NCBI RefSeq assembly: GCF_016863655.1
Contig: NZ_BOPH01000050.1
Coordinates: 25,665-57,664, forward strand
DNA: 32,000 nt
Reading direction: 5' to 3'
Origin: Virgisporangium ochraceum
Lineage (GTDB): Bacteria; Actinomycetota; Actinomycetes; Mycobacteriales; Micromonosporaceae
This document shows, one piece after another, positions 12,189 through 28,153 of this stretch. The notes under the pieces were generated by a model. It had not been told where the DNA came from and did not search any database. It saw only the letters and a list, made by a program, of their open reading frames with translations. The position numbers were made by a program, and so were the translations under genes. Positions within the stretch are counted from its first letter, which is position 1, and the number at the start of each line of letters is the position of its first letter.

Positions 12189-12235
12189 CGAGACTAGAAA
12201 GCGGCGGGACCCCCGTCAAGCTCTGCAAGGATTGC

Positions 12236-12676
12236 GTGATGAGCGACGCCGAACCGGACCAGCGGGTGTTCCTCCTGCTCCAGCAGGCCGCACACCGGCT
12301 GCGGCTGTGGGCCGACCGGCGCAGCGTCGACCTCGCCGGAGTGACCACCGCGCAGACCGGCGCCCTGTTCGCGCTGCACGACGCGCCGAGGTCCACGCAA
12401 CGGGAGCTGGCCGCGGCGCTCGGGCAGCGGGAGTCCGCCGTCACGGCGATGGTGCGCCGGCTGCTCGACGCCGGGCTCGTCGAGCGTCACCCCAGCCCCG
12501 ACGACCACCGCGCCCACCAACTGGCCCTCACCGATTACGGGGTGGAAACCCTCGAAACCGTCAGGCCGTTGGTGGCCGAGTTCAACGCGATGCTGCGGCG
12601 GGTGCTCGGCGCCGACGGACCGCGCGCGCTCGCGGACGCCCTGCGGACCCTGCGCGACGCCGACGAGTTCCGATGA
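12236..12676 (+). CDS. MarR-family transcriptional regulator
   Basis: Track ORF 146 aa: ...FLLLQQAAHRLRLWADRRSVDLAGVTTAQTGALFALHDAPRSTQRELAAALGQRESAVTAMVRRLLDAGLVERHPSPDDHRAHQLALTDYG (MarR wHTH). Start is GTG 12236 or ATG 12239. Its TGA (12674..12676) overlaps the next ATG (12673..12675). Confidence 0.9.
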   Translation: MMSDAEPDQRVFLLLQQAAHRLRLWADRRSVDLAGVTTAQTGALFALHDAPRSTQRELAAALGQRESAVTAMVRRLLDAGLVERHPSPDDHRAHQLALTDYGVETLETVRPLVAEFNAMLRRVLGADGPRALADALRTLRDADEFR

Positions 12677-14180
12677 CCCTGGTCGACGTCCTCCTGCGGG
12701 CGGCCGACGAGGCACCGGACCAGGTGGTCGTGCACGTCCACGCCGACGGCACCGAGACCACGGTGACGCACCGCCAGCTGCGCGACGACGCGCTGCGGGT
12801 CGCCGCCGGCCTGTCGGCCGTTCCGCGGGGCATGCCCGTGATCCTCCGGTTGGACCGGAGCGCGGACTTCCAGGCGGCGTTCTGGGGCGCGGTGTGCGCC
12901 GGCCTCGTGCCGGTTCCGCTGGCTCCCGGCGCCACCCACGTGGCGGCGGCACTCGACCATCCACCCGTGGTCACGGCGGCCGACCTGCCCGCGTTGCGGC
13001 GCAACGGTTCCACCGGCGTGCGCCGGCGGGCGGCGGACGACCTCGCGTTCCTGCAGTACTCCTCGGGCAGCACCGGCGACCCGCGCGGCGTCGAGGTGAC
13101 GCACGCCAACATCGTGGCGAACCTGTCGCAGTCCGTCGCGGCGGGTGGCTTCCGGTCATCCGACGTGATCGTCACCTGGTTGCCGTACCACCACGACATG
13201 GGGCTGATCGGCAGCCATCTCGTGCCGCTGTCCGTCCACATGAGACAGGTCGTGCTCAGCCCGGTGACGTTCGCGAAGCGGCCCGTCCGCTGGCTGGAGA
13301 CCGCGACCCGGCACCGCGCCACGGTACTGCCCGCGGTGAACTTCGCGCTGGCGCTGGTCGTGCGGCGGGTACCGGACTGGGACGCGTTCGACCTGAGCCC
13401 GGTGCGGTTGTGCGCGGTCGGCGCGGAGCCGATCGCACCGGCCGTGTGGCGGTCGTTCCTGGAGAAGGCGGCGGCCGCCGGGCTGAATCCGGCCGCGGTG
13501 CAGCCGGTGTACGGGTTGGCGGAGGCGACCCTCGGCGTCTGCGCGCCGCCGTTGGGAGAGGCGGCGGTACCGGTGGTGCTCGACCGCGCGGCGCTGGCGG
13601 AAGGCCGGGCCGAGCCCGCTTCCTCCGGTGTGGGGGCCGAGTTCATGGACGTCGGCCACCCGGTGCCGGGATGCACCGTGCGGATCGTCGACGACGCGCG
13701 CGCCGCCCTGCCCGACGACCGCGTCGGCCACATCGAGGTGCGCGGACCGAACGTGGCCCGCGGCTACCACCGCGACCCGGACGCCACGGCACGGTCCTTC
13801 GTGGACGGTTGGCTGCGCACCGGCGACCTCGGGTTCCTCCGGCGTGGACGGTTGTGCGTCACCGGCCGGGCCAAGGACGTGGTGTTCGTCAACGGAGCGA
13901 CGCTCCACGCGTCGGACCTGGAGGCGGTGGCCGCCGCCACCCCCGGCATGCCGGCGGGCACGTGTGCGGTCGTGGGGACACCCGACCCGGCCACCGGCGC
14001 CGACCGCGTCGTGGTGTTCGTGCCGCGCCACAGCCCGGTGGCGCGCGTCGCGGGCCGGATCGCCGCGGCGACCGGGCACTCCGACGTCCACGTCGTGCCG
14101 CTCGCCACGCTGCCGCGCACGACGAGCGGCAAGGTGCGCCGCGCACTCCTGCGCGCCCGGTTCGAGGCGGGCGAGTTCCC
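12673..14180 (+). other. Domain: fatty acyl-AMP ligase (FAAL)-type adenylation domain
   Basis: Motifs: DLAFLQYSSGSTGDPRGVEVTHANIVANL, VTWLPYHHDMGLIG, YGLAEATLGV, WLRTGDLGF, TSGKVRR. Confidence 0.85.
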
Positions 14181-17100
14181 CGCGAAGCCCGACGCGGAGA
14201 GCACGGTCCGCCGCGCCTGGGGCAGGGCCCTGCGCCGGGACCCGGCGACCCTCGACGCGCACGACCGGTTCCTCGAGATCGGCGGCACGTCGCTCACGGC
14301 GATGCAGGTGCTGGCCGACCTCGAGGACGCGTACGGCGTCGAGCTCGACCCGCTCGTGCTCCGCGACCACGCGACGATCGCCCAGCTGGCCGGATACCTG
14401 GACGGCCACCGGCCGACCCCCGCGCGACCCACGACCGGCGCCGCGCCGGCAACGGGAACCGTGGCCGTCATCGGGATGGCGTGCCGGTTCCCCGGAGCCG
14501 ACACGCCCGAGCGCTTCTGGGACGCGCTGCTGGCCGGGTACGACGCCGTCGCCGACTCGACCCGCTGGGCCGGGTCCGGGTCGTTCCTCGACGATCCGGC
14601 GGCCTTCGACGCCGCGTTCTTCGGCCTCGACGCCGACGAGGCCGGGCACACCGATCCGCAGACCCGCATCCTCCTCGAAGTGGCGCACGAGGCGCTGGAA
14701 CGGGCCGGCTACGCCGGTCACCGCCGCCGCGGGGTACGGGTCGGTGTGTTCGCCGCGGCCGGCGAGAGCGGGTACGCCGACCTGCAGCGGCGGGCGGGCG
14801 TCTCCCCGCGGGCCGGGCTGATCGGCGGGCTGCGCACCCTCGTGGCCGCCCGCGTCGCCCACGCGCTCGACCTCGACGGGCCGGCGCTCGTCGTCGACAC
14901 CGCGTGCTCGTCGGCGCTCGTCGCCCTGCACCTGGCCCGGCTGAGCATCGCCGCCGGCGAATGCGACCTCGCCGTCGTCGGCGGGGTCAACCTGAACCTC
15001 ACCTCCGACGCCCACCGCGCGCTCGACGACGCGCGGGCCGTCTCGAAGACGGGGCGCTGCCGCGTGTTCAGCGCCGACGCCGACGGGATCGTGCCGGGCG
15101 AGGGCGCGGCGGCCCTGGTGCTCGCCGGTGCCGAGGCCGCCCGCCGGCGCGGAGATCCGGTGCTGGCGCTGGTACGCGGCAGCGCGGTCAACAACGACGG
15201 CCGCTCGCTCAGCGTCCTGACCCCGAACCCGCCGCGGCAGCAGGAGGTGATCGCCCGCGCGTACCGGGAGTCGGGGGTGGACCCGGCCCGGGTGTCCTAT
15301 GTGGAGGCCCACGGCACCGGCACGGTACTGGGCGACCCGATCGAGGTCCGGTCGCTGGCGCGGGCCCTGCCGCCCCGTCGCGACGGCCGGCCGCGGTGGC
15401 TGGGCTCGGTCAAGGCCAACCTCGGGCACCTGCTGAACGCGGCCGGCATGCCGGCGCTGGTCAAGGTCGTGCTGGCGCTGGGGCACCGGCGGCTTCCCCC
15501 GTCGCCGCACCACGACCCGGTCTCGACGCGGCTCGGCCTCGCCGGCGCGGGCCTCGCCGTGGTCGCCGGGCCCGTGGAGTGGACGGCCGACGGCCCGCTC
15601 GTCGCGGGCGTGAACGGGTTCGGCTTCGGCGGCACGAACGCCCACGTGATCCTGGAGGAACCGCCCACGGCACCGGTCTCCGCGCGGCGGCCGGGTCCCC
15701 ACCTGCTGACCCTGTCGGCCGGCAGCCCGCGCGCGCTCGACGAGGCGGTGGCCGCCCTACGCGCCCACGCCACCGCCCGGCCGGACCTCGGTGCCGGCGA
15801 CCTGTGCGCCAGCGCCGGCTCCGCGCGGGACCACGGCCGCCACCGCGTCTCGGTCGTGGTCGACGGCGACTCGGCCGCGGACGTGGCGGCCGCCCTGGCG
15901 ACCGCGACACCGGTGACGGCGGCCGGTTCCGCGCGGCTCGCGTTCGTCCTGCCCCCGACCGGGGGCGTCGGTGCGGCGCTGGCCCGTCGTCTCATGGCCG
16001 CCGGCATCCGCCCCGACACGGTGGTACGGGCCGGATCCGCCGTCGACGGGTCCGCGGTCGTCGTCGCGTTCGCCGGTGCGGCGCCGGGCGCCGCGGTGCC
16101 TGGCGACGGGCCGCGCGCCGCGGTGCCGGGCGCCCACGTGGTTCCCGCCGACGCCGACGGGCGGGCACTGCTCGCGCTCGCCGGCCGGCTGTGGGAGGTC
16201 GGCGTACCGCTGGACCGCACCGCGCTCGACGCCGGATCCACGCGCGTACCGGTGCCGACCTACCCGTTCCAGCGGCAGCGGTACTGGGTCGACCCGCCGC
16301 CGGCGCTGCACCGGCTCGACTGGCGGCCCGCCCCGCTGGCGGCCGGCGAGCCGCGACCCGTTCTGGTGCACCGGGTCGGCCCGTCCTCCACTGTGGACAG
16401 CGTCGGCAGCCTCGATGCCGAGGTCCGCGCGGCGGTCGCGGCCGTCCGCGGGCTGCTGGACCGGCGGACCGGCGCGGTCCTCGTGGTGACCGAGGACGTG
16501 TACGCCACCGGCGCACCCGGCGAGACGGTGCGACCGGCGCAGGCCGTGGCCGTCGGGCTGGCGCTGGCGCTGCCCGCGGAGGTACCCGGGCTCGGGGTGC
16601 GGGTCGTCGATCTGTCCACGGTGGACGGCGCCGACCGGCACGCCGCAGCGCTGGAGCGGGAGAGCACCGCGCCACCGGCGCCGGGCGCGGCCGAGGTCGT
16701 CGCGTGGCGCGGCGGTGAACGCCTGACCCGCGTGGCCGTACCGGTCGACGGTGCCGGTACCGGGCCGGTCGGCGGCGCCTATCTCGTCACGGGTGGCACG
16801 GGCGGCCTGGGCACCGCCCTGGCCCGGGACCTCGCCGCGAGCGGTCGGCCGACGGTCGTCCTCGTCGCCCGTGGCGCCACCCCGCCCGCGGACCTGCTCG
16901 CCGAGCTCCGGTCGCTCGGAGCCCGGGCCCACTACATCCCGTGCGATGTCGGCGATCCCGCTTCGGTCGAGGCGCTCGCCGCGGCCGTCGACGCGCTCGC
17001 GCCCACGCTGGACGCCGTGTTCCACGCGGCCGGCGTGCTCCGTCCGGGCAGCCTCGCCGCGCAGTCGGACGACGACCTCGCCGCGGTGCTGGCGCCCAAG

Positions 17101-20100
17101 GTGCGGGGAACCCACCTGCTCGCGGACGCCCTGCGCCCGCGCCGGTTCGTCTCGGTGTCGAGCGTCGTGACGCGCCGGCCCGGTCTCACGGGTGCCCTCG
17201 CCGGGTACGCCGCGGCCAACCACTTCCTGGCCGCCTCCGGCGCCGGCCGGGACGGTGCGGTGACGGTCCACCTGCCGCTGGTCGCCGACACCGGCATGGC
17301 CACGCCGGCGCTGACGGCGGCCCTCGCCGCGAAGGGCGTGCCCGTCGTCGACCGGGCCACCGCGGTGCGGGCGCTGCGGGCGGCCCTGACCGTCGACGGC
17401 GCGCACGAGCTGACGACCGTCGCCGAGGAACCGCCGCCGGAGCCCGGACCGCCACCCCCGGCCGGCCTGAAGGAGCTGCTGGAGCACCACGTCGGGCGGG
17501 AGCTGCGCACCGACGAGTCGCTGCTGCGACAGGGCATCGACTCTCTCACGGCGGTGGACCTCGTGAAGAAGCTGGAGCAGCGGCTCAACCGGGACCTGCC
17601 CACCACGCTGCTGTTCGAGTACGACACCATCGACGCGCTGGCCGGGTTCCTCGGCGAGGGCACGGCCCTCACGCCCGTGCAGCGCGCCTTCCACACGGCC
17701 GCCCGCATGTACCCGGACGTGCCCGCGTACGGCTACGTCCGGCAGACGCTCGACGGTCCGCTGGACGCCGCGCGGGTCGGCCGCGCGTTCGCGGTGCTGG
17801 CCGCGCGCCACCCGATGCTGCGGATGCGGCTCGTCGGCCCCGGGCCGCGGCAGGTGATCGCGCCACCGGCCACAGTGGACGTCGCACCGCCGTGGTTCAG
17901 CGAGGTGAGCCTGCGCACGACGCCGGAACAGCTCGACGAGGACCTGTGCAACCGGCCGATCGACCTCTTCCACGAGGCGCCGCTGCGCGCCGTGCTCGCC
18001 CGCGAGTCGTCCGGTCTCTCGCATCTCGTGATCGTCGGCCACCACGCCGCCGTCGACGGGTACAGCCTCCACCTGCTGTGCCAGGAGCTGTGGTCGATCT
18101 ACCGCGACGGCGCCGGCCCGGTGGCGCAGACCCCGTTCTCCGGGCTGCCGGTGACCCCGGCCTCCACAGTGGACACCGCGTACTGGCGGCGCGCGCTCGC
18201 CACCTACCCCGCCGGCCTCGCGCTGCCCTACGACGGAGACCCGTCCGCGGCACCGGCGCCGCCGCTGGTCACCCACCGGGTCGCGACCGACGCGGCGGCG
18301 CTGCGGGAAGCCGCCGCCGACGCCGGTGTCTCGCTGTTCCACCTCGTGCTCGCGTCGTACCTGCGGTGCCTCGCCACGTGGACGGGGCAGGAGCGGGTCG
18401 CGGTGACCGTCGCCCGGGCGGGCCGGGATGCCCGGGTGCCCGGGATCGGCGCGCTCATCGGTCCGCTCGCCGACGTGCTGCCGGTGGCGGTCGAGGTCGG
18501 CCCGGCCGACGACGTGCGCGCGGTGGCGGCCCGGGTGCGCGCGGCCTGGCTGGAGTCGGAGCGGCACGCATCGGTGTCCGGTGTGGACATCGGCCGCCTC
18601 GCGCCGGCCGGGGGCGCCGGGCTGCGGACGGCCGGGTTCAGCTTCGCCCGCTTCCCGGTGACCGTCGACACCGCCGGCCTGCCACCGGTGACCGCCACCG
18701 CGGCGGGCACCGGCTCGGCCGCCACCCGGCTGAGCCTGCTCGCGTGGGAGCTCGACGGGTCGCTGCACCTGTCGTGGACGTTCCCGCTCGCGTTGTTCCG
18801 CCGGGAGACCGTGGCGCGGCTCGCGACGGAGCACCTGGCCACGCTGACGGCCGCCGCGGGAGAGCACCCGGCCACGCTGACGGCCGCCGCGGGAGAGCGC
18901 CGGGCCGGGATCGTGCGCCGCGTCCTCGACCGCTGCGCCACCACGCCGGACGCCGTCGCCGTCGACCCGATGACGGGTCCGCCGCTCACCTACCGGGACC
19001 TCGACCGGGAATCCGGCCGCCTGGCCGCCGCGCTCGCGGCCCGCTCGGCCGGCGCGCGGGTCGGTCTGCTGACCCGGCCCGGCGTCGACACGGTCGTCGG
19101 CGTGCTGGGCGTGCTGCGGTCCGGCGCCGCGTACGTCCCGGTGGACGCCACCCACCCGCCCGGCCGCCTGCGCGACCAGCTCGACCGGGCCGGGGTCCGC
19201 CTGGTCGTGTGTCACGCGGCCACCGCCGACGCGGCGGCCGCGATCGGCCTGGAGCGGTTGGACCTGTCGGAGACCGGGGCGGCGACGTCCACTGTGGACG
19301 CCGAACCGGGTGACCTCGCGTACGTCATGTTCACCTCGGGGTCGACCGGCCGCCCCAAGGCTGTTCCGGTGACCCACACCGCGCTCGCCACCTACCTCGA
19401 CTGGGCCGTCGACACGTTCGGGTACGGGCCGGACGACCGGATGCTGCAGGTCGCACCGAGCTGTTTCGACGCCTCGGTGCGGCAGATCCTCGCGCCGCTG
19501 CTCGCCGGCGCGACGGTGGTTCCGGTCGACCGCGACCTGCTGCGCGACCCGGACGCGCTGCTCCGCCTCCTGGAACGCGGCCGGATCACGGTGTGGAGCT
19601 CGGTGCCGTCGCTGTGGGAACGGCTGCTCGCCGCCGCCGAACGACGGGCCGACCGGCCGGACCTGTCCGCACTGCGGTGGGTGCACGTCGGCGGCGAGCC
19701 GCTGGCGGTCGGCGCGGTGCGGCGCTGGTTCGACCTGTTCGGCGCGGGTGCACCGGTGACCAACCTGTACGGCCCGACCGAGACCACGATCAACGCGACG
19801 TACCACGTCGTCGCGCGGCGGCCGGCGGACGACGACCGCTCGGTCCCGATCGGACGGCCCGCCGCCGGTGCGCTCCTGCGGGTCGTGGACGACGACGGCC
19901 GCCCCGCCGACGAGGGCGAGCTGCTCATCGGCGGACCCGGCGTCAGCCCCGGCTACCTCGACGATCCCGAGCGCACGGCGGCCGCGTTCCGGTGGCGCGA
20001 CGGCCGGCGCTGGTACGTCAGCGGCGACGTGGTGCGGCGCCGCCCCGACGGCGTGCTGGAGTTCATCGGTCGCCGCGACGACCAGGTGAAGGTCCGCGGG

Positions 20101-22884
20101 CACCGGGTCGAACCCGGCGAGACCGAGGCGGTGCTGCGCGGTCACCCCGACGTCGAGCACGCGGCCGTCCTTCCCGACGGCACCCGGCTGGTCGCGTACG
20201 CGCAACCGCGGGCGGGAACCGATCCGGACCTGCGCGCGTACCTGCGCGAGCGGCTGCCCGAGTACCTGGTGCCGGCGCGGATCCACGTGCTCTCCGCGAT
20301 GCCGATGACCTCCGCCGGCAAGGTCGACCGGGGTCGGCTCGTGGGCACCGACGACGCGGACGCGACCGGCGGGCCACCGCGGGGCGTCACCGAGAAGGCG
20401 GTCGCGGCGGCGTGGTCGCGGCTGCTCGGCGCGGACCTGGTGGGACGCGAGGACGACTTCTTCACCCTCGGCGGCGACTCGATCCTCGCCCTGGACCTGT
20501 TCGCCCACCTGGCCGACGAGTTCCCCGGGCTCCCCCGCCCCACGGCGATCTACCGGCACCGCACCGTGCGGGCGCTGGCCGCCGCCATCGACGCGGCCCG
20601 CGGCGGACCGGAGCCCGAACCACGGGTTCCGGACCGGGCCGACACCCCGTTCCCGCTCACCGCGTCCCAGCGGGGTTTCCTGCTCGCCGAGGCGCTCGAC
20701 CCGGCCGGCAACCACGGCTGGCTGGCGCGCATCCGGCTGCGGGGGCCGCTCGACCGGGACCGGTTCCAGCGCGCCGTCGACGCGCTCGTCGAGCGGCACG
20801 GGATGCTGCGCACGGTGTTCCCGGCCGGGGCGCGGCCGCCCGTGCAGCAGGAGCTGCCGCCCGCGCTGCGGCTGCCCGTCGGGTTCCACACGTCCGATGT
20901 GGACGGTGTGGTCGCCGCGGAGCGGGTGCGCCGGTTCGAGCCGTGGGCCTGGCCGCTCATCCGGCTGCGGCTGGTGCGGGTCGGGCCGGAGGAGCACGTG
21001 CTCGTGGTCCACGCGCACCATCTCATCGGTGACGGCTACAGCGCCGCGCTGCTCGGCCGGGAGCTGCTCGACCGGTACCGCGACCCGGACCACCGGCCGC
21101 CCCCGCCGCGGAGCACGTTCCGGGACTTCGTCGCGGTCGCCGGCACCGGGCCGACGCTGCGTCCACGCGCGGTGCGGGCACCCGGCGGCGGCGCGGTGCG
21201 GGAGCACACCGGCGTCGCCGAGTCCCGTGTGGACGGTCGCACCGTCGCCGGGCTGCGACGGCTCGCCGCCGCGCATGGCGCCAGCGTCCACGGCGCCGTG
21301 CTCACCGCGTACGTGCGGGCGCTACGGCGGCACACCGGGCGCGCCGACCCCGCTGTCGGCGTCGCCACGACCGGGCGGGACCACCCGCTCCCCGACCTCA
21401 CGAGGCTGTTCGGCCCGTGTGTCACCGCCGTCGTCGTGCGGCCGGTGCCGGCCACGGGCTTCGTCGCCGACCTGCGGGCGGTGGCCGCGGCGCTGGAGAC
21501 GGCGCACGACAGCACGGCCGGCGGTGAGGTCGACGCCTTCCTCACGTACCTGGACTTCACCTCGCTCACCCGCCCGACCGGACCGGGCGAGCTGACCGCG
21601 GAGTGGGAGCCCGGCACCGAACTGGACCCGCCGGCCGCCGGCGCGGAGGTCGTACTCGCCGCCCGGCCCACGGACGACGGCCTGCTGTTCACCGTCCGCG
21701 CCGCGCTGCCACCGGACCGGGCGCGGGCTCTCGCCGACGCGGTCAGGGACGAGCTCACGGACGCGATCAGGCACGAGCTCACGGACGCGGTCAAGGGCCG
21801 CGCACGACGGAGAAGCTGGGCCGGGACGCTCGACGCCGCCCTGATCGGTTACCTGCCCTCGCCGGCGCACCTGGCCGCGATGGCCGGCCTGCCCACGAAC
21901 GCCGTTCCGCGCGACCGGGTCCGGGCCGCCCTCTTCCCGGGCGGCGCGCCCCGCCTCCTCGAGGTCGCCGAGACCGCCCTCGGCCGCTCCGGATACGTCT
22001 GTCTGCCCCGGTTCGCCGACGAACTGTCCACCGTGGACGGCCTGGCGGCCGAGGTCACCCGGGCGGTCGGGGAGGCGCACCGGTTCGGGGCACGCGGCGT
22101 CTCGCTGGCGGGGATGCTGCCGTCGCTCACCGGGTACGGGTTCGCGCTCGGGGACGACGACACGGTCACCACCGGGCACGCCGCCACGGCCGTGGCGGTC
22201 GCGGGCACCGTGGCCGCCGCGCTCAGCGCCACCGGCCGGGCGCCGGGCACGATCGCGTTCCTGGGCGTCGGCTCGATCGGACGCGCCGCGTTGAACCTCG
22301 TGCTGGCGCGGCTTCCCGAGCGGCCCGACCGGGTGCTGCTGTGCGACCTCCCCGCCACGGTGCCCGTCCTCCAGGAGCTACGCCGCACGCTGATGGACGC
22401 CGGCCACCGCGTGTCGATCGGCGACTGGTCCGACGCCGACCTGATCGTCGCGGCCACCAGCGCGTCGACGGCTCCGCTGCGGGCGGAGGACCTGCGGCCC
22501 GGCACGATCGTCGTCGACGACTCGTTCCCGCCGGCCATCGACCCCGTCGCCGCGCTCGACCGCATGCGCCTGAAGCGCGACGTGCTCGTGGTCGGCGGCG
22601 GGCTGCTCGCCGTCGGAGCCGTCGACCGCGTCACCGCGCCGGACCTGCCGCCGGACGTGATCGAGCGGTACGCCGCGCAGCCGCGGGTGCCCGGAACGCT
22701 GGCGTCGTGCCAGGTGGAGTCGCTGGCCCGGGCCGCCGATCCGGGGCTGCCGCGGGTCCGTGGCCTCGTGGAGCCCGAGGTCGCCGCCGCCTACGCGTCG
22801 GCGCTCGATCGGCTGGGCGTCGGCACCGCGCCGCCGCACCTGATGCACCACGTGATCGACCCGGCGACCCTGCGGCTGCCGTAG
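12673..22884 (+). CDS. Hybrid PKS-NRPS megasynthase: FAAL-ACP-KS-(AT-less linker)-KR-ACP-C-A-PCP-C-(AAR-like NAD(P) domain)
   Basis: In-frame ATG at 12673 (MTLVDVLLRAADEAPDQVVV...) inside track ORF 12232..22884. The first 147 codons of the track ORF overlap the MarR gene in another frame and are Arg/Pro-rich junk. Domain motifs are listed in the sub-features below. Confidence 0.95.
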   Translation: MTLVDVLLRAADEAPDQVVVHVHADGTETTVTHRQLRDDALRVAAGLSAVPRGMPVILRLDRSADFQAAFWGAVCAGLVPVPLAPGATHVAAALDHPPVVTAADLPALRRNGSTGVRRRAADDLAFLQYSSGSTGDPRGVEVTHANIVANLSQSVAAGGFRSSDVIVTWLPYHHDMGLIGSHLVPLSVHMRQVVLSPVTFAKRPVRWLETATRHRATVLPAVNFALALVVRRVPDWDAFDLSPVRLCAVGAEPIAPAVWRSFLEKAAAAGLNPAAVQPVYGLAEATLGVCAPPLGEAAVPVVLDRAALAEGRAEPASSGVGAEFMDVGHPVPGCTVRIVDDARAALPDDRVGHIEVRGPNVARGYHRDPDATARSFVDGWLRTGDLGFLRRGRLCVTGRAKDVVFVNGATLHASDLEAVAAATPGMPAGTCAVVGTPDPATGADRVVVFVPRHSPVARVAGRIAAATGHSDVHVVPLATLPRTTSGKVRRALLRARFEAGEFPAKPDAESTVRRAWGRALRRDPATLDAHDRFLEIGGTSLTAMQVLADLEDAYGVELDPLVLRDHATIAQLAGYLDGHRPTPARPTTGAAPATGTVAVIGMACRFPGADTPERFWDALLAGYDAVADSTRWAGSGSFLDDPAAFDAAFFGLDADEAGHTDPQTRILLEVAHEALERAGYAGHRRRGVRVGVFAAAGESGYADLQRRAGVSPRAGLIGGLRTLVAARVAHALDLDGPALVVDTACSSALVALHLARLSIAAGECDLAVVGGVNLNLTSDAHRALDDARAVSKTGRCRVFSADADGIVPGEGAAALVLAGAEAARRRGDPVLALVRGSAVNNDGRSLSVLTPNPPRQQEVIARAYRESGVDPARVSYVEAHGTGTVLGDPIEVRSLARALPPRRDGRPRWLGSVKANLGHLLNAAGMPALVKVVLALGHRRLPPSPHHDPVSTRLGLAGAGLAVVAGPVEWTADGPLVAGVNGFGFGGTNAHVILEEPPTAPVSARRPGPHLLTLSAGSPRALDEAVAALRAHATARPDLGAGDLCASAGSARDHGRHRVSVVVDGDSAADVAAALATATPVTAAGSARLAFVLPPTGGVGAALARRLMAAGIRPDTVVRAGSAVDGSAVVVAFAGAAPGAAVPGDGPRAAVPGAHVVPADADGRALLALAGRLWEVGVPLDRTALDAGSTRVPVPTYPFQRQRYWVDPPPALHRLDWRPAPLAAGEPRPVLVHRVGPSSTVDSVGSLDAEVRAAVAAVRGLLDRRTGAVLVVTEDVYATGAPGETVRPAQAVAVGLALALPAEVPGLGVRVVDLSTVDGADRHAAALERESTAPPAPGAAEVVAWRGGERLTRVAVPVDGAGTGPVGGAYLVTGGTGGLGTALARDLAASGRPTVVLVARGATPPADLLAELRSLGARAHYIPCDVGDPASVEALAAAVDALAPTLDAVFHAAGVLRPGSLAAQSDDDLAAVLAPKVRGTHLLADALRPRRFVSVSSVVTRRPGLTGALAGYAAANHFLAASGAGRDGAVTVHLPLVADTGMATPALTAALAAKGVPVVDRATAVRALRAALTVDGAHELTTVAEEPPPEPGPPPPAGLKELLEHHVGRELRTDESLLRQGIDSLTAVDLVKKLEQRLNRDLPTTLLFEYDTIDALAGFLGEGTALTPVQRAFHTAARMYPDVPAYGYVRQTLDGPLDAARVGRAFAVLAARHPMLRMRLVGPGPRQVIAPPATVDVAPPWFSEVSLRTTPEQLDEDLCNRPIDLFHEAPLRAVLARESSGLSHLVIVGHHAAVDGYSLHLLCQELWSIYRDGAGPVAQTPFSGLPVTPASTVDTAYWRRALATYPAGLALPYDGDPSAAPAPPLVTHRVATDAAALREAAADAGVSLFHLVLASYLRCLATWTGQERVAVTVARAGRDARVPGIGALIGPLADVLPVAVEVGPADDVRAVAARVRAAWLESERHASVSGVDIGRLAPAGGAGLRTAGFSFARFPVTVDTAGLPPVTATAAGTGSAATRLSLLAWELDGSLHLSWTFPLALFRRETVARLATEHLATLTAAAGEHPATLTAAAGERRAGIVRRVLDRCATTPDAVAVDPMTGPPLTYRDLDRESGRLAAALAARSAGARVGLLTRPGVDTVVGVLGVLRSGAAYVPVDATHPPGRLRDQLDRAGVRLVVCHAATADAAAAIGLERLDLSETGAATSTVDAEPGDLAYVMFTSGSTGRPKAVPVTHTALATYLDWAVDTFGYGPDDRMLQVAPSCFDASVRQILAPLLAGATVVPVDRDLLRDPDALLRLLERGRITVWSSVPSLWERLLAAAERRADRPDLSALRWVHVGGEPLAVGAVRRWFDLFGAGAPVTNLYGPTETTINATYHVVARRPADDDRSVPIGRPAAGALLRVVDDDGRPADEGELLIGGPGVSPGYLDDPERTAAAFRWRDGRRWYVSGDVVRRRPDGVLEFIGRRDDQVKVRGHRVEPGETEAVLRGHPDVEHAAVLPDGTRLVAYAQPRAGTDPDLRAYLRERLPEYLVPARIHVLSAMPMTSAGKVDRGRLVGTDDADATGGPPRGVTEKAVAAAWSRLLGADLVGREDDFFTLGGDSILALDLFAHLADEFPGLPRPTAIYRHRTVRALAAAIDAARGGPEPEPRVPDRADTPFPLTASQRGFLLAEALDPAGNHGWLARIRLRGPLDRDRFQRAVDALVERHGMLRTVFPAGARPPVQQELPPALRLPVGFHTSDVDGVVAAERVRRFEPWAWPLIRLRLVRVGPEEHVLVVHAHHLIGDGYSAALLGRELLDRYRDPDHRPPPPRSTFRDFVAVAGTGPTLRPRAVRAPGGGAVREHTGVAESRVDGRTVAGLRRLAAAHGASVHGAVLTAYVRALRRHTGRADPAVGVATTGRDHPLPDLTRLFGPCVTAVVVRPVPATGFVADLRAVAAALETAHDSTAGGEVDAFLTYLDFTSLTRPTGPGELTAEWEPGTELDPPAAGAEVVLAARPTDDGLLFTVRAALPPDRARALADAVRDELTDAIRHELTDAVKGRARRRSWAGTLDAALIGYLPSPAHLAAMAGLPTNAVPRDRVRAALFPGGAPRLLEVAETALGRSGYVCLPRFADELSTVDGLAAEVTRAVGEAHRFGARGVSLAGMLPSLTGYGFALGDDDTVTTGHAATAVAVAGTVAAALSATGRAPGTIAFLGVGSIGRAALNLVLARLPERPDRVLLCDLPATVPVLQELRRTLMDAGHRVSIGDWSDADLIVAATSASTAPLRAEDLRPGTIVVDDSFPPAIDPVAALDRMRLKRDVLVVGGGLLAVGAVDRVTAPDLPPDVIERYAAQPRVPGTLASCQVESLARAADPGLPRVRGLVEPEVAAAYASALDRLGVGTAPPHLMHHVIDPATLRLP
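14200..14410 (+). other. Domain: carrier protein 1 (ACP)
   Basis: Motif DRFLEIGGTSLTAMQVLADLE. The phosphopantetheine Ser codon is at 14290..14292. Confidence 0.8.
14461..15660 (+). other. Domain: ketosynthase (Cys-His-His triad intact)
   Basis: Motifs: VAVIGMACRFPGA, VVDTACSSALVALH (Cys codon 14905..14907), YVEAHGTGTVLGDPIE, GSVKANLGHLLNAAG, GFGFGGTNAHVILEE. Confidence 0.9.
15661..16290 (+). other. KS-to-KR linker lacking an acyltransferase core (AT remnant)
   Basis: Only about 200 aa separate TNAHVILEE from the post-AT-linker signature PTYPFQRQRYWV. A relic of the AT N-terminus (ARLAFVLPPTGG, where FVFPGQGxQ is usual) is present. There is no GHSxG and no xAxH motif. Confidence 0.7.
16387..16397. 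repeat. Iterated palindrome copy: TCCACTGTGGA
   Basis: Within the megasynthase. Read as tcc act gtg gac (S-T-V-D); ACT is a rare Thr codon. Confidence 0.9.
16614..16626. repeat. Iterated palindrome copy: GTCCACGGTGGAC
   Basis: Within the megasynthase. Read as tcc acg gtg gac (S-T-V-D). Confidence 0.9.
17455..17670 (+). other. Domain: carrier protein 2 (ACP)
   Basis: Motif LLRQGIDSLTAVDLVKKLEQ. The Ser codon is at 17542..17544. Confidence 0.8.
17870..17878. repeat. Iterated palindrome copy: CCACAGTGG (context GCCACAGTGGAC)
   Basis: Within the megasynthase. Read as gcc aca gtg gac (A-T-V-D); ACA is a rare Thr codon. Confidence 0.9.
18163..18173. repeat. Iterated palindrome copy: TCCACAGTGGA
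   Basis: Within the megasynthase. Read as tcc aca gtg gac (S-T-V-D). Confidence 0.9.
18829..18906 (+). repeat. In-frame 33-bp tandem duplication (2.4 copies) in the C-A interdomain linker
   Basis: Unit 18829..18861 (gagcacctggccacgctgacggccgccgcggga) and unit 18862..18894 differ at one base. A partial third copy follows. They encode EHLATLTAAAG / EHPATLTAAAG / ERRAG. Confidence 0.9.
18900..20345 (+). other. Domain: NRPS adenylation domain
   Basis: Motifs: LTYRDLD, LRSGAAYVPVD, LAYVMFTSGSTGRPKAV, SCFDASVRQI, NLYGPTETTI, GELLIGGPGVSPGY, YVSGDVV, QVKVRGHRVEPGE, SAGKVDR (Lys codon 20320..20322). Confidence 0.9.
19286..19300. repeat. Iterated palindrome copy: CGTCCACTGTGGACG (7-bp arms)
   Basis: Within the megasynthase A domain. 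Read as tcc act gtg gac (S-T-V-D). Confidence 0.9.
20380..20600 (+). other. Domain: peptidyl carrier protein
   Basis: Motif DDFFTLGGDSILALDLFAHL. The Ser codon is at 20479..20481. Confidence 0.85.
20640..21735 (+). other. Domain: condensation domain 2 (terminal; no carrier domain follows it)
   Basis: Motifs PFPLTASQRGFLLAEAL and VLVVHAHHLIGDGYSAALL (HHxxxDG; His codons 21016..21021). Confidence 0.75.
21736..21798 (+). repeat. In-frame 24-bp tandem duplication (2.6 copies) at the C2 / terminal-domain junction
   Basis: Unit 21736..21759 (gacgcggtcagggacgagctcacg) and unit 21760..21783 (gacgcgatcaggcacgagctcacg) differ at 2 bases. A partial third copy follows. They encode DAVRDELT / DAIRHELT / DAVKG. 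Confidence 0.85.
21800..22881 (+). other. Domain: C-terminal NAD(P)-binding domain resembling acyl-ACP reductase (AAR) / shikimate-DH-like fold; candidate reductive release domain
   Basis: Sequence blocks: ALIGYLPSPAHL, GVSLAGMLPSLTGYGF, VTTGHAATAVAVAGTV, IAFLGVGSIGRAALNLV (GxGxxG), DLIVAATSA, IVVDDSFPPAI, VLVVGGGLL, TLASCQVESL (Cys codon 22708..22710). The resemblance to AAR is from memory and was not searched. Confidence 0.5.
22026..22038. repeat. Iterated palindrome copy: GTCCACCGTGGAC
   Basis: Within the megasynthase terminal domain. Read as tcc acc gtg gac (S-T-V-D). Confidence 0.9.
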
Positions 22885-22898
22885 CCGACGGAGACCGG

Positions 22899-23585
22899 TC
22901 AGAGCTGCGCGTCGAGAACGGGCGCGGTGCCGGCGAGGATGCGGAGCAGGTCGTCGCGGAAGCGGCTGATCGCCGCCGCCATCGCGGCGGCGGCCGCGTC
23001 GGGGTCGCGGGCGCGCAACGCGGTGAGCAGGGTCAGGTGCTCCTCGCGGATGCGGGGCGCACCACCCGGCACGCCGGCCGCGAACGCTGCCGCGATCGCC
23101 CGCTCGCTCTCGTCGAGCAGGCGCTCCACCAGCGCCTCCTGGCGGCTGTTCCCGGCGGCGGCCGCGACCGCCACGTGGATGTCGCGGTTGACCGCGAGGA
23201 AGTCCTCCACAGTGGACCCGCCTTCATCCGACAGCCGGCCGACGCGGGCGACGAGCCCGTCGACGACCCCGGCGTCGAGGACCGTCGCCGCGACGCGGGC
23301 ACCGGCCGGCTCGACCAGCACGCGCAGGTCGTAGATCTCCCGGACGTCGCGCAATGTCAACGGCGCGATCACGTGCCCGCGGCGCGGCTCCGCCAGCACC
23401 AGCCCCTCGGCCCGCAGCCGCGCCAGGGCCGCCCGTACGGCCGCCTTCGACAGCCCGAAGCGGTCGCTCAGGTGGGTCTCCGACACCGGCGCCGACGGCG
23501 GCAGCTCCAGCCGGACGATCGCCCGGCGCAGGCGGAGGTAGGCGGCGTTGCCCGACGACGTTGCCGGTACGGCGACAGTGCTCAC
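22899..23585 (-). CDS. GntR-family transcriptional regulator (FCD subfamily)
   Basis: Within track ORF 22899..23978(-). Translation AYLRLRRAIVRLELPPSAPVSETHLSDRFGLSKAAVRAALARLRAEGLVLAEPRRGHVIAP (wHTH) plus a helical C-terminal half. I prefer GTG 23585 (VSTVAVPATSS...). The ATG at 23606 is followed by AT-rich codons (tca ata caa). Everything upstream of 23606 in the track ORF is antisense to the aminotransferase. Confidence 0.85.
   Translation of the reverse strand: MSTVAVPATSSGNAAYLRLRRAIVRLELPPSAPVSETHLSDRFGLSKAAVRAALARLRAEGLVLAEPRRGHVIAPLTLRDVREIYDLRVLVEPAGARVAATVLDAGVVDGLVARVGRLSDEGGSTVEDFLAVNRDIHVAVAAAAGNSRQEALVERLLDESERAIAAAFAAGVPGGAPRIREEHLTLLTALRARDPDAAAAAMAAAISRFRDDLLRILAGTAPVLDAQL
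23206..23216. repeat. Iterated palindrome copy: TCCACAGTGGA
   Basis: Within the minus-strand GntR gene. Read as tcc act gtg gag (S-T-V-E). Confidence 0.9.
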
Positions 23586-23599
23586 GCCGTCCCATTGTA

Positions 23600-23632
23600 T
23601 TGACATGTCACGGCAGCAATGTTGACATGTCA
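23600..23632. promoter_or_regulatory. Two copies of TTGACATGTCA (10-bp perfect palindrome TGACATGTCA), start-to-start spacing 22 bp; candidate GntR operators overlapping promoter elements
   Basis: Copy 1 is at 23600..23610 and copy 2 at 23622..23632. Each contains a TTGACA hexamer. On the minus strand a TACAAT hexamer (23594..23599) lies 8 nt upstream of the GntR GTG, consistent with a leaderless mRNA. Copy 2 ends 2 nt before the aminotransferase GTG (23635). Confidence 0.55.
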
Positions 23633-23634
23633 GG

Positions 23635-24918
23635 GTGACCACCGACAAGCTGATCCGGTACGGCGGCGAGTTCGCCTCCGAGCTCATCGAACGCGCCGAG
23701 GGCAGTTGGCTGACCACCGAGGGCGGCCGGCGCATCCTCGACTTCACGAGCGGGCAGATGTGCGCGACGCTCGGGCACGGCCACCCCGAGATCCTCAAGG
23801 CGATCGGCGACGCGAGCGGCCGGGTCGTGCACCTGTTCAGCGGCTTCCTGTCGCGTGACGTCACCGAACTGGCCCGCGAGCTGATGGCCACGCTGCCGGA
23901 GCCGTTGGCGCGCGCCATGTTCCTGTCGACCGGCGGCGAGGCGAACGAGGCCGCACTGCGTCTGGCGAAACTGCACACCGGCGGCTACGAGGTGCTGGCG
24001 TTCGCCGGCTCGTGGCACGGGATGACCGCCGGCGCGTCGTCGAGCACGTACAGCGCGGGACGGCGCGGCTACGGTCCCGGCATGCCCGGCGCGATGGCGC
24101 TGCCGGCGCCGAACACCTACCGGTGCCCGATCCGGCACTGCCGCGACACGTGTGACTTCACCTGCCTGGACACCGGGATGGCGCTCGTCGACACGATGTC
24201 GACCGGCGCTCCGGCGGCCGTGATCGCCGAGCCGATCCTCAGCGCCGGCGGCATCGTGCCGCTGCCGCCGGGCTACCTCGCGCGGCTGCGCGAGCACTGC
24301 GACGAGCGCGGCATGGTGATGATTCTCGACGAGGCGCAGACCGGCATCGGCCGCGTCGGCTCGATGTACGCGTTCGAACAGCACGACGTCGTACCCGACA
24401 TCCTCACGCTCAGCAAGACGCTGGGTGGCGGATTACCTTTGTCCGCAACGGTGACCACGAAAGAAATCGAGGAGGACGCCGCCGCGAAGGGCTTCCTCCA
24501 CTTCACCTCGCACGTGAGCGACCCGCTGCCGGCCGCCGTGGGACGGGCCGTGCTCCGCACGGTGCTCGCCGACGACCTTCCCGGACGCGCCCTGAAACTC
24601 GGCGAACGGCTGCGCGCCGGGCTCCTGGAACTGCAGCGCAAGCACGAGCCGATCGGTGACGTCCGCGGGCAGGGACTGCTGCTCGGAGTGGATCTGGTGG
24701 CCGACCGCGACACCCGCGCGGCCGCGCCGGAGTACTCGGTAGCGGTCACCAACCGGGCCCTGGAACTGGGCGTGAACATCAATATCGTCAAGTTCCCCGG
24801 CTTCGGCAGCGTACTGCGGATCGCCCCGCCGCTCACCGCGACCACCGACGAGATCGACCTCGGACTGGAGATGCTCGACAGAGCGCTGACCCTCGCACTG
24901 AGCGACGTTCGCGTTTGA
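23635..24918 (+). CDS. Class-III PLP aminotransferase, 2,2-dialkylglycine decarboxylase (DgdA)-like
   Basis: Track ORF 427 aa. Blocks LIRYGGEFASELIERAEGSWL...ILDFTSGQMCATLGHGHPEI...HLFSGFLSRDV...FLSTGGEANEAALRLAKL...AGSWHGMT...IAEPILSAGGIV...ILDEAQTGIGRVG...PDILTLSKTLGGGLPL...THVSDPLPAAVG...GDVRGQGLLLGV...RIAPPLT. From memory this aligns block for block with Burkholderia DgdA. Confidence 0.85.
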   Translation: MTTDKLIRYGGEFASELIERAEGSWLTTEGGRRILDFTSGQMCATLGHGHPEILKAIGDASGRVVHLFSGFLSRDVTELARELMATLPEPLARAMFLSTGGEANEAALRLAKLHTGGYEVLAFAGSWHGMTAGASSSTYSAGRRGYGPGMPGAMALPAPNTYRCPIRHCRDTCDFTCLDTGMALVDTMSTGAPAAVIAEPILSAGGIVPLPPGYLARLREHCDERGMVMILDEAQTGIGRVGSMYAFEQHDVVPDILTLSKTLGGGLPLSATVTTKEIEEDAAAKGFLHFTSHVSDPLPAAVGRAVLRTVLADDLPGRALKLGERLRAGLLELQRKHEPIGDVRGQGLLLGVDLVADRDTRAAAPEYSVAVTNRALELGVNINIVKFPGFGSVLRIAPPLTATTDEIDLGLEMLDRALTLALSDVRV

Positions 24919-26889: not shown

Positions 26890-26896
26890 AACCGCG

Positions 26897-26926
26897 GTGG
26901 GACAGGGCCGGTCGGCCCTGTCCCAC
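26897..26926. terminator. 13-bp stem / 4-nt loop hairpin between convergent glxA and GH6 genes
   Basis: GTGGGACAGGGCC (26897..26909), loop GGTC, GGCCCTGTCCCAC (26914..26926). The arms are perfectly complementary. Confidence 0.6.
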
Positions 26927-26933
26927 GCCGGCA

Positions 26934-28010
26934 TCAGGACCTACGGGCCAGATCCAGCGCGTACTCCGGCCACCACGCACCGGCGCCGGGCTCCCCGGAA
27001 CGGCAGGCACCGTCCGACTCGCCGGGTCGTTTGATCCAGAGCAGTGCCGCCGCCCGCGGGTGCCCGGTGTCCACAGTGGGCGGTTGGCCGAGCTTGCGCC
27101 CCGGCGGGTTGCACCAGCTCGGCCCGCCGTTCACCTCGGCACCCGGAGCCGGGCCCGCGCCGTTGCGGCTCGTGTCGACGACGAACCGCTTCCCACCCAT
27201 CGCCGACGACAGGCGGTCGCCGTAGGCGAGGTTGTCCGCGGTCGGGATGAAGTTGGAGACGTTCAGGGAGAAGCCGTCGGCCGCGTCGCCACCGGCGCGA
27301 CGCAGCGCGCCGGCGAGCCTGCCCACGTCGGCGACCCACGCGGGATGGCCGGCGTCGAGGTAGACCAGGGCGTTCGGGGACGACTTCAGCGTGGTGACCG
27401 CGTCGCGCAGCAGCGCGTAGCGCTCGTCGGCCAGGTCTCCGCAGCCGTCGACGGTGTGCGGCACGGCGTCGGGCTCCACGACGACGACCGCGGGTCGGCC
27501 CTTCAGACCGGCCGCCACGGTGCGGATCCACGCCTTGTACGCCGCGGGTGACGCCGCTCCGCCGGCGCTGTAGCTGCCGCAGTCCCGGCCGGGGATGTTG
27601 TACGCGACGAGCACCGGCACCTGCCCGGCTGCCGCCGCGCGCGTCATGAGCGCGTCGACCTCCCGGGTCGCGTTGGTACCGGCGGTCAGCCAGTGGGCCA
27701 CCGCCCGGTCACCGATCTTGCGGATCTGCTGGGCGTCGGTGGCGCGGCTCTCGGCGATCCACCGCGCGGCCTGCTGGGTGGCCGGGTTCGCCGGGTCGAC
27801 GTAGAACTTCTTTCCCGCCAACGGGTTCGGTGGAAGGGGTGGCGGCGGCGACGGCAGCCCTTCCTGCTGTGCGTTGCCGCCCACACCACCCGGCAGCGCC
27901 GGTGCTCCGGTGCCGGTGACGGACGGCGGCTCGTCGGATTCGCATCCGGCCAACCCGGGAACCGACAACGCAAGGGCCGCAACGGTCGCAAGCCGAAGAA
28001 ATCTCGTCAT
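26934..28010 (-). CDS. cslZ: Glycoside hydrolase family 6 endoglucanase-like lipoprotein (CslZ-like)
   Basis: ATG at 28010 within track ORF 26934..28082(-). MTRFLRLATVAALALSVPGLAGC is a lipoprotein signal with lipobox LAGC. GH6 motifs: YNIPGRDCGSYSAGG, VVVEPDAV, YLDAGHPAW, WIKRPGESDG. Confidence 0.85.
   Translation of the reverse strand: MTRFLRLATVAALALSVPGLAGCESDEPPSVTGTGAPALPGGVGGNAQQEGLPSPPPPLPPNPLAGKKFYVDPANPATQQAARWIAESRATDAQQIRKIGDRAVAHWLTAGTNATREVDALMTRAAAAGQVPVLVAYNIPGRDCGSYSAGGAASPAAYKAWIRTVAAGLKGRPAVVVVEPDAVPHTVDGCGDLADERYALLRDAVTTLKSSPNALVYLDAGHPAWVADVGRLAGALRRAGGDAADGFSLNVSNFIPTADNLAYGDRLSSAMGGKRFVVDTSRNGAGPAPGAEVNGGPSWCNPPGRKLGQPPTVDTGHPRAAALLWIKRPGESDGACRSGEPGAGAWWPEYALDLARRS
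27071..27079. repeat. Iterated palindrome copy: CCACAGTGG (context GTCCACAGTGGG)
   Basis: Within the minus-strand GH6 gene. Read as ccc act gtg gac (P-T-V-D). Confidence 0.9.
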
Positions 28011-28051
28011 GAATCCATTCCGGTTCTCGACAAGCGGAAACCATAACCCAG

Positions 28052-28067
28052 CCACCCGAACGGGTGG
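28052..28067. promoter_or_regulatory. 16-bp palindrome CCACCCG-AA-CGGGTGG in the cslZ/cslA divergent promoter region
   Basis: Perfect 7-bp arms with a 2-bp spacer. It lies in the comparatively AT-rich 143-bp gap between the starts at 28010(-) and 28154(+). Confidence 0.4.
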
Positions 28068-28153
28068 ACTAAATCTGCGCATACATCACCTACCGGTGCG
28101 AACAGCCCCGACGCGAGTTAGCTTCACCGGGACCCGGAAATACCGTCCGCGCA

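Follow-up and report, generated by a model that had tools for sequence, protein, structure and literature searches.

A hybrid FAAL-PKS-NRPS synthase gene of Virgisporangium ochraceum with a deleted acyltransferase and a TAD-family domain at its C-terminus

A gene of 10.2 kb from Virgisporangium ochraceum raises the question of what a hybrid megasynthase makes, and how it lets its product go, when it lacks an integrated acyltransferase (AT) and ends in neither a thioesterase (TE) nor a reductase of the short-chain dehydrogenase/reductase (SDR) type. The gene lies at 12673..22884 of the window, that is, the whole stretch of 32,000 nucleotides that was analysed (assembly GCF_016863655.1, contig NZ_BOPH01000050.1, positions 25,665 to 57,664), to which coordinates refer unless another locus is named, and it joins a fatty acyl-AMP ligase (FAAL) and a polyketide synthase (PKS) module to one nonribosomal peptide synthetase (NRPS) module. 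The synthase is an AT-less variant of a widespread, already catalogued and functionally uncharacterised family. Its last domain is, by sequence and by structural modelling, a homologue of the "terminal amidation domain" (TAD; PDB 9E4S/9E4X) of CarI. We give an even chance to the reading that the gene encodes a functional stand-alone hybrid megasynthase, the lipo-amino acid product of which is released by the second condensation domain (C2) together with the TAD, most likely as a carboxamide.

The window has a G+C content of 65-79%, and the maximal open reading frame (ORF) on the plus strand at this place is 12232..22884. The ATG at 12673 is the credible start, because it overlaps the stop codon of an upstream MarR gene (12236..12676) as ATGA, the in-frame stretch 5' of it is Arg/Pro-rich out-of-frame junk, and the orthologue in Virgisporangium aurantiacum (locus L001) begins with the same first residue. 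The G+C content at third codon positions (GC3) of 0.92 favours coding. The ratio of nonsynonymous to synonymous substitution rates (dN/dS) against the V. aurantiacum orthologue was 0.32 overall and ranged by domain from 0.20 for the ketosynthase (KS) to 0.53 for the peptidyl carrier protein (PCP), with 0.25 for the TAD and 0.33 for the linker that holds the AT relic. Values of 0.2-0.5 in every domain indicate that the gene is under purifying selection. The features of the synthase are the following.

12673..22884, plus strand: hybrid FAAL-PKS-NRPS gene, single ORF of 3,403 codons, stop included (ORF, Pfam, GC3, dN/dS)
12673..14187, plus strand: FAAL loading domain, aa 1-505 (AMP-binding Pfam, NCBIfam FAAL families, PDB matches)
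14203..14400, plus strand: acyl carrier protein ACP1, aa 511-576, Ser in GGTSL 537-541 (Pfam PP-binding, motif)
14458..15864, plus strand: KS and KS-AT linker, aa 596-1064 (Pfam ketoacyl-synt, Ketoacyl-synt_C, KAsynt_C_assoc, CurL-like_PKS_C)
15865..16308, plus strand: acyltransferase remnant without GHSxG, aa 1065-1212 (no Acyl_transf_1, orthologue alignments)
16348..17352, plus strand: ketoreductase (KR), structural and catalytic halves, aa 1226-1560, GGTGGLG 1374, YAAAN 1512 (Pfam KR 1368-1524, E = 7e-33; motifs)
17440..17637, plus strand: ACP2, aa ~1590-1655, Ser in GIDSL 1621-1625 (PP-binding, motif)
17665..18876, plus strand: condensation domain C1, aa 1665-2068, HHAAVDG 1790 (Pfam Condensation, full-length match to solved C domains)
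18931..20322, plus strand: adenylation (A) domain, aa 2087-2550, code DARSHGLINK (Pfam AMP-binding and AMP-binding_C, TIGR01733)
20374..20592, plus strand: PCP, aa ~2568-2640, Ser in GGDSI 2600-2604 (PP-binding, motif)
20635..21792, plus strand: second condensation domain C2, aa ~2655-3040, HHLIGDG 2782 (Pfam Condensation E = 3e-28, N-lobe best)
21814..22881, plus strand: TAD-family domain, acyl-ACP-reductase-like, aa 3048-3403 (phmmer, AF2/Foldseek, motifs)

The initial annotation, made from the sequence alone, had described one ORF of 3,403 codons with the order FAAL-ACP-KS-(AT-less)-KR-ACP-C-A-PCP-C-X. The ORF proved to be real, intact and uninterrupted over 10.2 kb, Pfam together with motif reading gave the same order, and each motif quoted there was found at its expected place in the translation. 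The loading domain is FAAL-like, since its best relatives in the PDB are FAALs (3pbk, 3kxw and FadD23/32/28, those of E. coli and Legionella among them; E 1e-45 to 1e-74) and acyl-CoA ligases match the N-terminal adenylating domain more weakly (~1e-25); it is thus nearer to FAALs than to CoA synthetases, and its own ACP1 follows directly. Pfam placed the KS at residues 596-946 and the families of the KS-AT linker at 956-1064, and the Cys-His-His triad of the KS is intact (DTACSS 742, HGTGT 880, NLGH 916). There are three carrier serines, and the catalytic motifs of all domains are intact. In the Pfam scan of the whole product no Thioesterase match was obtained, and no GHSxG/GYSxG pentapeptide occurs in any coding frame of the gene, the general GxSxG form being outside that scan. 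The last 364 residues, scanned alone, gave no match to NAD_binding_4 or Epimerase-type families (SDR-type R/TD) even at E <= 10. These scans bear out the absence of a TE and of an SDR-type R domain, as had been read from the sequence, and no carrier domain lies 3' of C2, which had likewise been claimed.

The last ~360 residues of the synthase matched no Pfam family. When they were compared with PDB sequences by phmmer, residues 57-356 of the 364-aa segment matched 9e4x/9e4s with E = 3.3e-24; the identity to the CarI TAD is only ~25%. An AlphaFold2 (AF2) model built with 39 homologues (pLDDT 90.6, pTM 0.91) adopted the two-lobe fold of TADs, a macrodomain-like N-lobe followed by a Rossmann C-lobe. 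Foldseek superimposed the model on the CarI TAD entries 9e4s/9e50/9e56/9e4u/9e4x with TM 0.83-0.86 and an rmsd of 2.6-3.0 Å; the next-best structures were those of cyanobacterial acyl-ACP reductase (AAR; 6jzq/6jzu) with TM 0.66-0.67 and E ~1e-16, compared to 1e-30 for the TAD, and beyond these two groups only generic Rossmann enzymes were retrieved. In NCBIfam only one model matched below 1e-5, that of PigE in its N-terminal part (E = 1.2e-6). The NAD(P)-type domain of ~360 residues expected from the initial annotation is therefore a Rossmann-type fold indeed, and the domain, which had been left there as an unrecognised X, belongs to the acyl-ACP-reductase-like TAD family, crystal structures of which were released in 2025.

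The motifs point in the same direction. The TTG motif of the CarI TAD is found as TTGH 3166 (VTTGH compared to ITTGH), the P-loop GxGxxG as GVGSIG 3198 (GLGSVG in CarI), and the Asp predicted to select NAD lies in LLCD 3222 (TLCD in CarI). The loop Asp-Asp-Ser-Gly-cisPro is present as DDSFP 3282, with Phe in place of the Gly of CarI DDSGP, and the invariant Cys is Cys3346 in ASCQVE, aligned with ..GCAFS.. of CarI (Cys2238). All five motifs (TTG, GxGxxG, Asp, DDSxP, Cys) are invariant in the 81 family sequences collected (81/81). An NADPH-type site, with no Asp after strand 2 and with Gly under the nicotinamide, was not found; the domain has the two Asp residues typical of TADs.

TADs end the NRPSs of carmabin, vatiamide and hectoramide (CarI/VatR/HcaD), the products of which end in primary amides, and in the CarI TAD, which binds NAD(H), the arm of the PCP reaches the Cys (Rankin et al., bioRxiv 10.1101/2024.10.28.620694). 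The same study reported that an Asp of CarI excludes NADP and that a further Asp lies under the nicotinamide where AAR has Gly, and presented a sequence network of TADs in which neither cluster 1, dominated by Streptomyces (460 sequences), nor cluster 5, that of Micromonospora, has a known function (bioRxiv 10.1101/2024.10.28.620694). The TAD of the window evidently belongs to these Streptomyces/Micromonospora clusters.

The position of the domain differs from that in the cyanobacterial lines. It does not follow the last PCP directly; a C domain of ~390 residues lies between them, and this holds for all close relatives as well. The AF2 model of C2 showed a complete two-lobe C fold, and its HHxxxDG motif is invariant in 15 homologues and kept in actinomycetes and distant phyla alike. 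Among single-domain structures the nearest to C2 are those of unusual C domains, i.e. HtmB2-CT, AmbE-CmodAA and the terminal C domain of MokA. C2 was also considered as a dehydrating CmodAA domain, the signature of which is a [K/R]SVLLAAH helix before motif C5 (PMC11342130). By inspection this signature is absent: C2 reads ASVHGAVLTAY at this stretch, and the family consensus is TTLYAPVLTAY, so the assignment is not supported.

How widely this C-TAD arrangement occurs was examined with a C2-TAD alignment searched against one genome per species (185,579 species), and the domain order was mapped by BLASTP with the eleven domains of the window in the best 80 of 341 loci. The C-TAD unit is encoded by 341 species-level genomes. 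The whole order stands in one uninterrupted ORF at 74 of the best 80 loci, and the other six, which are split, masked or truncated at the end of a contig, show the same order wherever sequence is available. The domain string, taken at first to be unusual, thus recurs widely, and among the orphan megasynthases of actinomycetes this one ranks with the more widespread. The hosts include many Streptomyces (griseus, californicus, anulatus, viridochromogenes, phaeochromogenes and others), Micromonospora, Melissospora, Actinoplanes, Nonomuraea, Streptosporangium, Microtetraspora and Thermopolyspora, and the full order was also found in two distant genomes, one of Chloroflexota and one of Bradymonadales. 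The closest relative is that of V. aurantiacum, with a protein 77% identical and syntenic flanks 84-94% identical. In the literature searched, which did not include MIBiG, no characterised pathway or family member has this order, in keeping with the earlier statement that the exact string matched no characterised pathway.

A search of representatives with a profile of 818 positions spanning C2 and TAD returned 100,590 matches at E <= 0.001, mostly ordinary C domains; it is uninformative on the size of the TAD family, and only the listed matches with a C-terminal C-TAD were used. Among the relatives from read-archive assemblies there is a class of ~2,900-3,010 residues that starts at the KS, without FAAL-ACP and without AT, and still ends in C-A-PCP-C-TAD (P0099, P0103, P0111, P0126, P0127, P0130, P0141, P0146, P0158, P0174, P0196, P0213; L083 10001-19015); the one such locus inspected is a stand-alone gene with unrelated neighbours. 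A protein of Streptomyces pseudovenezuelae (P0088, 2,789 aa) passes from FAAL-ACP straight to C-A-PCP-C-TAD, has no KS or KR and carries the same A-domain code. In Streptosporangium lutulentum (L082, 1-11182) the synthase was called in ten fragments, probably through assembly frameshifts, and in Actinoplanes sp. CA-252034 (L081, 1182-12709) it is split cleanly into 2,936 and 902 residues. The locus of S. himastatinicus (L002) had been considered a different assembly line; its centre, without any Pfam match, is probably masked sequence, and this was dropped. Database proteins that looked like free-standing TAD or C-TAD proved to be pieces of the same synthase gene.

The missing AT is the second unusual trait of the gene. 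No Acyl_transf_1 match was obtained in the synthase, also when residues 1040-1370 were scanned alone at E <= 10, and tblastn with a Streptomyces AT as probe gave no match anywhere in the 32-kb window. Hidden Markov model scans, tblastn and orthologue alignments thus agree with the absence of an AT that had been claimed; a linker does stand in its place, but it has ~150 residues (1065-1212) and not the ~200 first estimated. What is left of the AT is a relic of 19 residues, VGAALARRLMAAGIRPDTV, aa 1099-1117 (15967-16023), ahead of the post-AT motif YPFQRQRYW, which is kept at aa 1197-1205 (16261-16287). The distance from the KS His to the post-AT motif is 318 aa in the window synthase, compared to 541-701 aa elsewhere. 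The state of the AT was established by scanning the region from KS to KR with Pfam in seven orthologues and by alignments (window 15865-16308; L045, L047, L053, L058, L063, L065 and L074, about 4100-4900 in each; L060). The orthologues of Streptomyces, Nonomuraea and Melissospora have a full AT of ~275 residues with GHSVG and a malonyl-type HAFH; in Micromonospora the AT is cut to its first ~115 positions and the active-site Ser is replaced (GHG/GYG/GVG); V. ochraceum and V. aurantiacum retain the relic only. Within Micromonosporaceae one orthologous gene thus displays a graded decay, from the full AT of Melissospora through the truncated one of Micromonospora to the relic of Virgisporangium. 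In the two Virgisporangium synthases ~60 aa of the structural half of the KR are missing as well, compared to the Streptomyces copies.

As these alignments show, the AT-less state is due to a lineage-specific loss, the ancestral module having been of the cis-AT type, and is no design of the family; the relatives that begin with the KS are independent AT-less lines. The synthase fits neither of the two usual types of module, for neither it nor its V. aurantiacum orthologue has an integrated AT with GHSxG, and the 32-kb window holds no discrete AT gene of the kind found in the clusters of trans-AT systems. Since the AT is deleted in cis, malonyl would have to come in trans, presumably from an acyltransferase encoded elsewhere, and FabD is the obvious candidate. 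Purifying selection, the intact Cys-His-His of the KS and the intact residues of the KR argue that the chain extension still takes place.

The specificity code of the A domain, DARSHGLINK, is shared without change by 63 of 80 family sequences (the window and 79 loci) and reads DARSHGLVNK in 15 more. As it is invariant in the family, the same amino acid is expected throughout. More distant C-TAD proteins carry DARS[H/K/Q]GLINK or GGRNLGLVNK in its place, always with Arg at position 239, and NRPSs with a PCP-TAD end and no C domain have unrelated codes without this Arg239 pattern. Basic residues at position 239 accompany carboxylate-bearing substrates such as Glu and alpha-aminoadipate, and an anionic amino acid would be our guess, held with low confidence. 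The GGRNLGLVNK subgroup is large (P0113, P0131, P0141, P0146 and others) and keeps Arg239 without the Asp235 that binds the alpha-amino group, so that its building block may not be activated at the carboxyl next to the amine.

When known systems are compared, the TADs of CarI/VatR/HcaD (PDB 9E4S, 9E4U, 9E4X, 9E50, 9E56) share with the window domain a homologous sequence, the two-lobe fold, the motifs, the catalytic-type Cys and the place at the extreme C-terminus of an NRPS without TE. In CarI, however, the PCP and the TAD are joined by a linker of 26 residues where the window synthase has a full C domain, and the upstream part is here a fixed module set for a single lipo-amino acid instead of a long peptide line. 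AAR (6JZQ/6JZU) and the N-terminal thioester-reductase domains of enzymes of the PigE/TamH type are alike in fold (TM 0.67), in the place of the Cys and in acting on carrier-bound thioesters. They differ in sequence (17-18% identity), in the use of NADPH by AAR, which has Gly where TADs have Asp, and in context, AAR being free-standing and paired with an oxygenase and PigE being fused to an aminotransferase, whereas the TAD is the C-terminus of a synthase. The front half follows the logic of Ols/CurM (FAAL-ACP-KS-AT-KR-ACP-ST-TE), complete with the AT in the Streptomyces orthologues, and the KS-AT linker of the window matches Pfam CurL-like_PKS_C; unlike Ols/CurM, the window synthase has no sulfotransferase-TE, passes its chain on to an NRPS module and has its AT deleted. 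MycA of mycosubtilin/iturin biosynthesis (FAAL-ACP-KS-aminotransferase-C-A-PCP) receives malonyl from the discrete FenF and, like the window synthase, has a fused FAAL and one KS extension without an integrated AT before the NRPS part, which makes it a precedent for malonyl supply in trans. In contrast to MycA, a KR stands in place of the aminotransferase, which leads to a beta-hydroxy and not a beta-amino acid; no discrete AT gene lies near the synthase, only one amino acid is added, and C-TAD replaces the further modules and TE. By analogy, the window synthase may work like an Ols/CurM or MycA lipo-initiation module to which one NRPS module and a TAD have been added.

The scheme that we infer, most conjectural in its trans-acylation, its substrate and above all its release reaction, would run as follows. 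The FAAL would adenylate a fatty acid and load it onto ACP1, the KS would extend the chain once with malonate, offered as malonyl-ACP2 by an AT encoded elsewhere (most simply the FabD of the fatty-acid synthase), and the KR would reduce it to 3-hydroxyacyl-ACP2. C1 would then transfer the 3-hydroxyacyl chain onto one amino acid held by the PCP. Up to this N-(3-hydroxyacyl)-aminoacyl thioester the chemistry is that already proposed in the initial annotation, and it is probably right. The C2-TAD pair would free the thioester without hydrolysis, either by way of the invariant Cys of the TAD or by attack of ammonia or an amine within C2, to give an amide. The product would accordingly be an N-(3-hydroxyacyl)-amino acid. 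A carboxamide is the most likely end because every product so far linked to a TAD has a primary amide at its terminus; by that analogy an amide terminus has a chance that we put somewhat below even.

Several observations weigh against release by the C2-TAD pair or leave parts of the scheme without an anchor. The authors of the TAD study saw no product release with ammonia or with any amino acid (bioRxiv 10.1101/2024.10.28.620694). The characterised cyanobacterial TAD directly follows its PCP, and the role of the ~390-aa C2 that intervenes here is unexplained; the AF2 prediction of C2-TAD gave no confident interface (pTM 0.50). The amino-acid substrate is not assignable, the code DARSHGLINK not having been found in the literature searched, and no product has been reported for any member of the FAAL-ACP-KS-(AT)-KR-ACP-C-A-PCP-C-TAD family. 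Finally, tblastn with the Streptomyces AT found no discrete AT in the window or within 10 kb on the downstream side of the Micromonospora loci.

Whether the neighbouring genes take part in the release bears on the alternatives. Those next to the synthase are the following.

12236..12676, plus strand: MarR-family regulator, 146 aa (Pfam MarR_2 E = 4e-16)
22899-23978, minus strand: GntR/FCD regulator ORF, 359 aa as listed (ORF list)
23635..24918, plus strand: class-III aminotransferase, 750 nt downstream of the synthase, matching the PigE model over the aminotransferase part

The GntR ORF as listed has a domain-less N-terminal extension of ~140 residues, which reaches into the 5' end of the divergent aminotransferase gene; its true start is probably near 23560, which would leave an ordinary divergent regulator/aminotransferase pair.

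The TAD could be a reductase. The chain would pass onto the Cys and be reduced by NAD(P)H to an aldehyde, which the class-III aminotransferase (23635..24918) would convert into an amine, as PigE does. Among solved structures AAR comes next after the TADs (TM 0.67), PigE supplies with its N-terminal part the sole NCBIfam match below 1e-5 (E = 1.2e-6), and this part is reported to be a thioester reductase to which a class-III aminotransferase is fused (PMC8341465); a gene for such an aminotransferase, which matches the PigE model over this part, lies 750 nt downstream, and a reduce-then-reoxidise route is listed by the TAD authors themselves (bioRxiv 10.1101/2024.10.28.620694). On the other hand, the aminotransferase and the GntR gene are absent at the other 79 loci, and where they do occur, in V. 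aurantiacum, they are 94% identical compared to 77% for the synthase, as unrelated housekeeping neighbours are; as a PigE-like partner the pair was therefore rejected. Moreover, the TAD-specific Asp that excludes NADP is present together with the Asp under the nicotinamide (Gly in AAR), the domain is much nearer to TAD than to AAR (E 1e-30 compared to 1e-16), and the invariant C2 would be left unexplained. We regard this reductive release as unlikely.

The same comparison of 80 loci answers the question of a gene cluster. MarR, amidohydrolase, GntR and aminotransferase genes adjoin the synthase in V. aurantiacum only, where they are more conserved than the synthase itself; MarR is kept there with 84% identity and does not occur in the other loci. 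Upstream flanks could be judged in about a dozen loci and in that of Actinoplanes sp. CA-252034, the synthase filling the 10-kb flank elsewhere, and when neighbouring ORFs from the 80 loci were clustered, antisense ORFs within the GC-rich synthase gene itself dominated the result. Genuine neighbours are common to at most 14 of the 80 loci and are of unrelated housekeeping types (TerB, arginase, AAA, SIS); the neighbours of the Actinoplanes copy are unrelated too. As no neighbour genes are conserved, the synthases of this family behave like single-gene systems. The compact cluster first proposed, in which the gene would be bracketed by its own MarR and by a GntR/aminotransferase pair, is thus not supported, since these neighbours are shared with V. 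aurantiacum and absent at the other 79 loci. No gene for a phosphopantetheinyl transferase, MbtH, a discrete AT or a type II TE is present in the 32-kb window, as had been stated.

Alternatively, C2 could be the true release catalyst, acting by cyclisation through a side chain or the 3-hydroxyl or by transfer to a free amine, while the TAD would be an accessory that might generate ammonia, from an amino acid or from NAD, or modify the product. Terminal C domains that release by cyclisation or by amine capture are established NRPS biology. The HHxxxDG motif is invariant from actinomycetes to distant phyla, no carrier follows C2, and its nearest structures (HtmB2-CT, AmbE-CmodAA, MokA terminal C) are special ones and not those of ordinary elongation C domains. 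Arg239, present in every C-TAD protein and not in PCP-TAD proteins, connects C2 to a particular substrate. Against this, the invariant Cys and the NAD site argue that the TAD itself acts as a catalyst on the chain, the CmodAA signature [K/R]SVLLAAH is absent by inspection (PMC11342130), and no confident interface or channel between C2 and TAD was predicted. Release by C2 with an accessory TAD seems improbable to us, to about the same degree as reduction.

That the gene is a decaying relic, its PKS module dead after the AT loss and making no product or an unextended acyl-amino acid only, we consider very improbable, for although the AT is missing from this gene and degraded in Micromonospora, the structural half of the KR is partly shorter than in Streptomyces and the 32-kb window contains no AT, the ORF is uninterrupted over 10.2 kb with all catalytic motifs intact, dN/dS is lowest in the KS (0.20) and below 0.55 in every domain, and AT-less versions persist in several independent lineages.

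Release by C2 and TAD acting together is the reading from which the wider meaning follows. TAD is the proposed answer to how C-terminal amides are made without a glycine-cleaving oxygenase. The C-TAD family probably offers the simplest test bed for it, with one gene, no conserved partners, one fatty acid and one amino acid, in tractable Streptomyces; the C-terminus of the product of one orthologue would bear directly on the amidation hypothesis and on the purpose of the extra C domain. The series from a full through a Ser-less truncated to a deleted AT in one orthologous gene is a natural experiment in which a cis-AT module turns trans-dependent. As a variant of a catalogued family the synthase is less exotic than was first supposed, and it remains useful for the questions of TAD function and of the extra C domain. 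It is tempting to propose, if tentatively and with less confidence than the amide end, that the C-TAD pair is a distinct, undescribed release machine, different from TE, SDR-type R, terminal-C and PCP-TAD release and tied to one unusual building block, that the family makes a conserved, unrecognised class of N-acyl lipids in actinomycetes, Chloroflexota and Bradymonadales, and that several of its lineages have come to depend on the malonyl transferase of primary metabolism.

Some further features of the window were recorded. Downstream of the aminotransferase, at 24979-30166, lies a glxA/GH6/cslA-like set, in which a GH6 (CslZ-like) gene on the opposite strand lies between a GlxA equivalog (922 bits, which exceeds the NCBIfam cut-off) and a CslA-like glycosyltransferase; V. 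aurantiacum has the GH6 gene only at the same place (L001, 14178-15293). The order differs from cslA-glxA-cslZ, which we take to be that of Streptomyces. The remaining features are the following.

13-2238, plus strand: major facilitator superfamily (MFS) transporter with an N-terminal extension of ~350 aa
7772-9424, minus strand: Hsp70/MreB-like ATPase, 550 aa
10317-11270, plus strand: DUF559/MTES_1575 endonuclease-like protein

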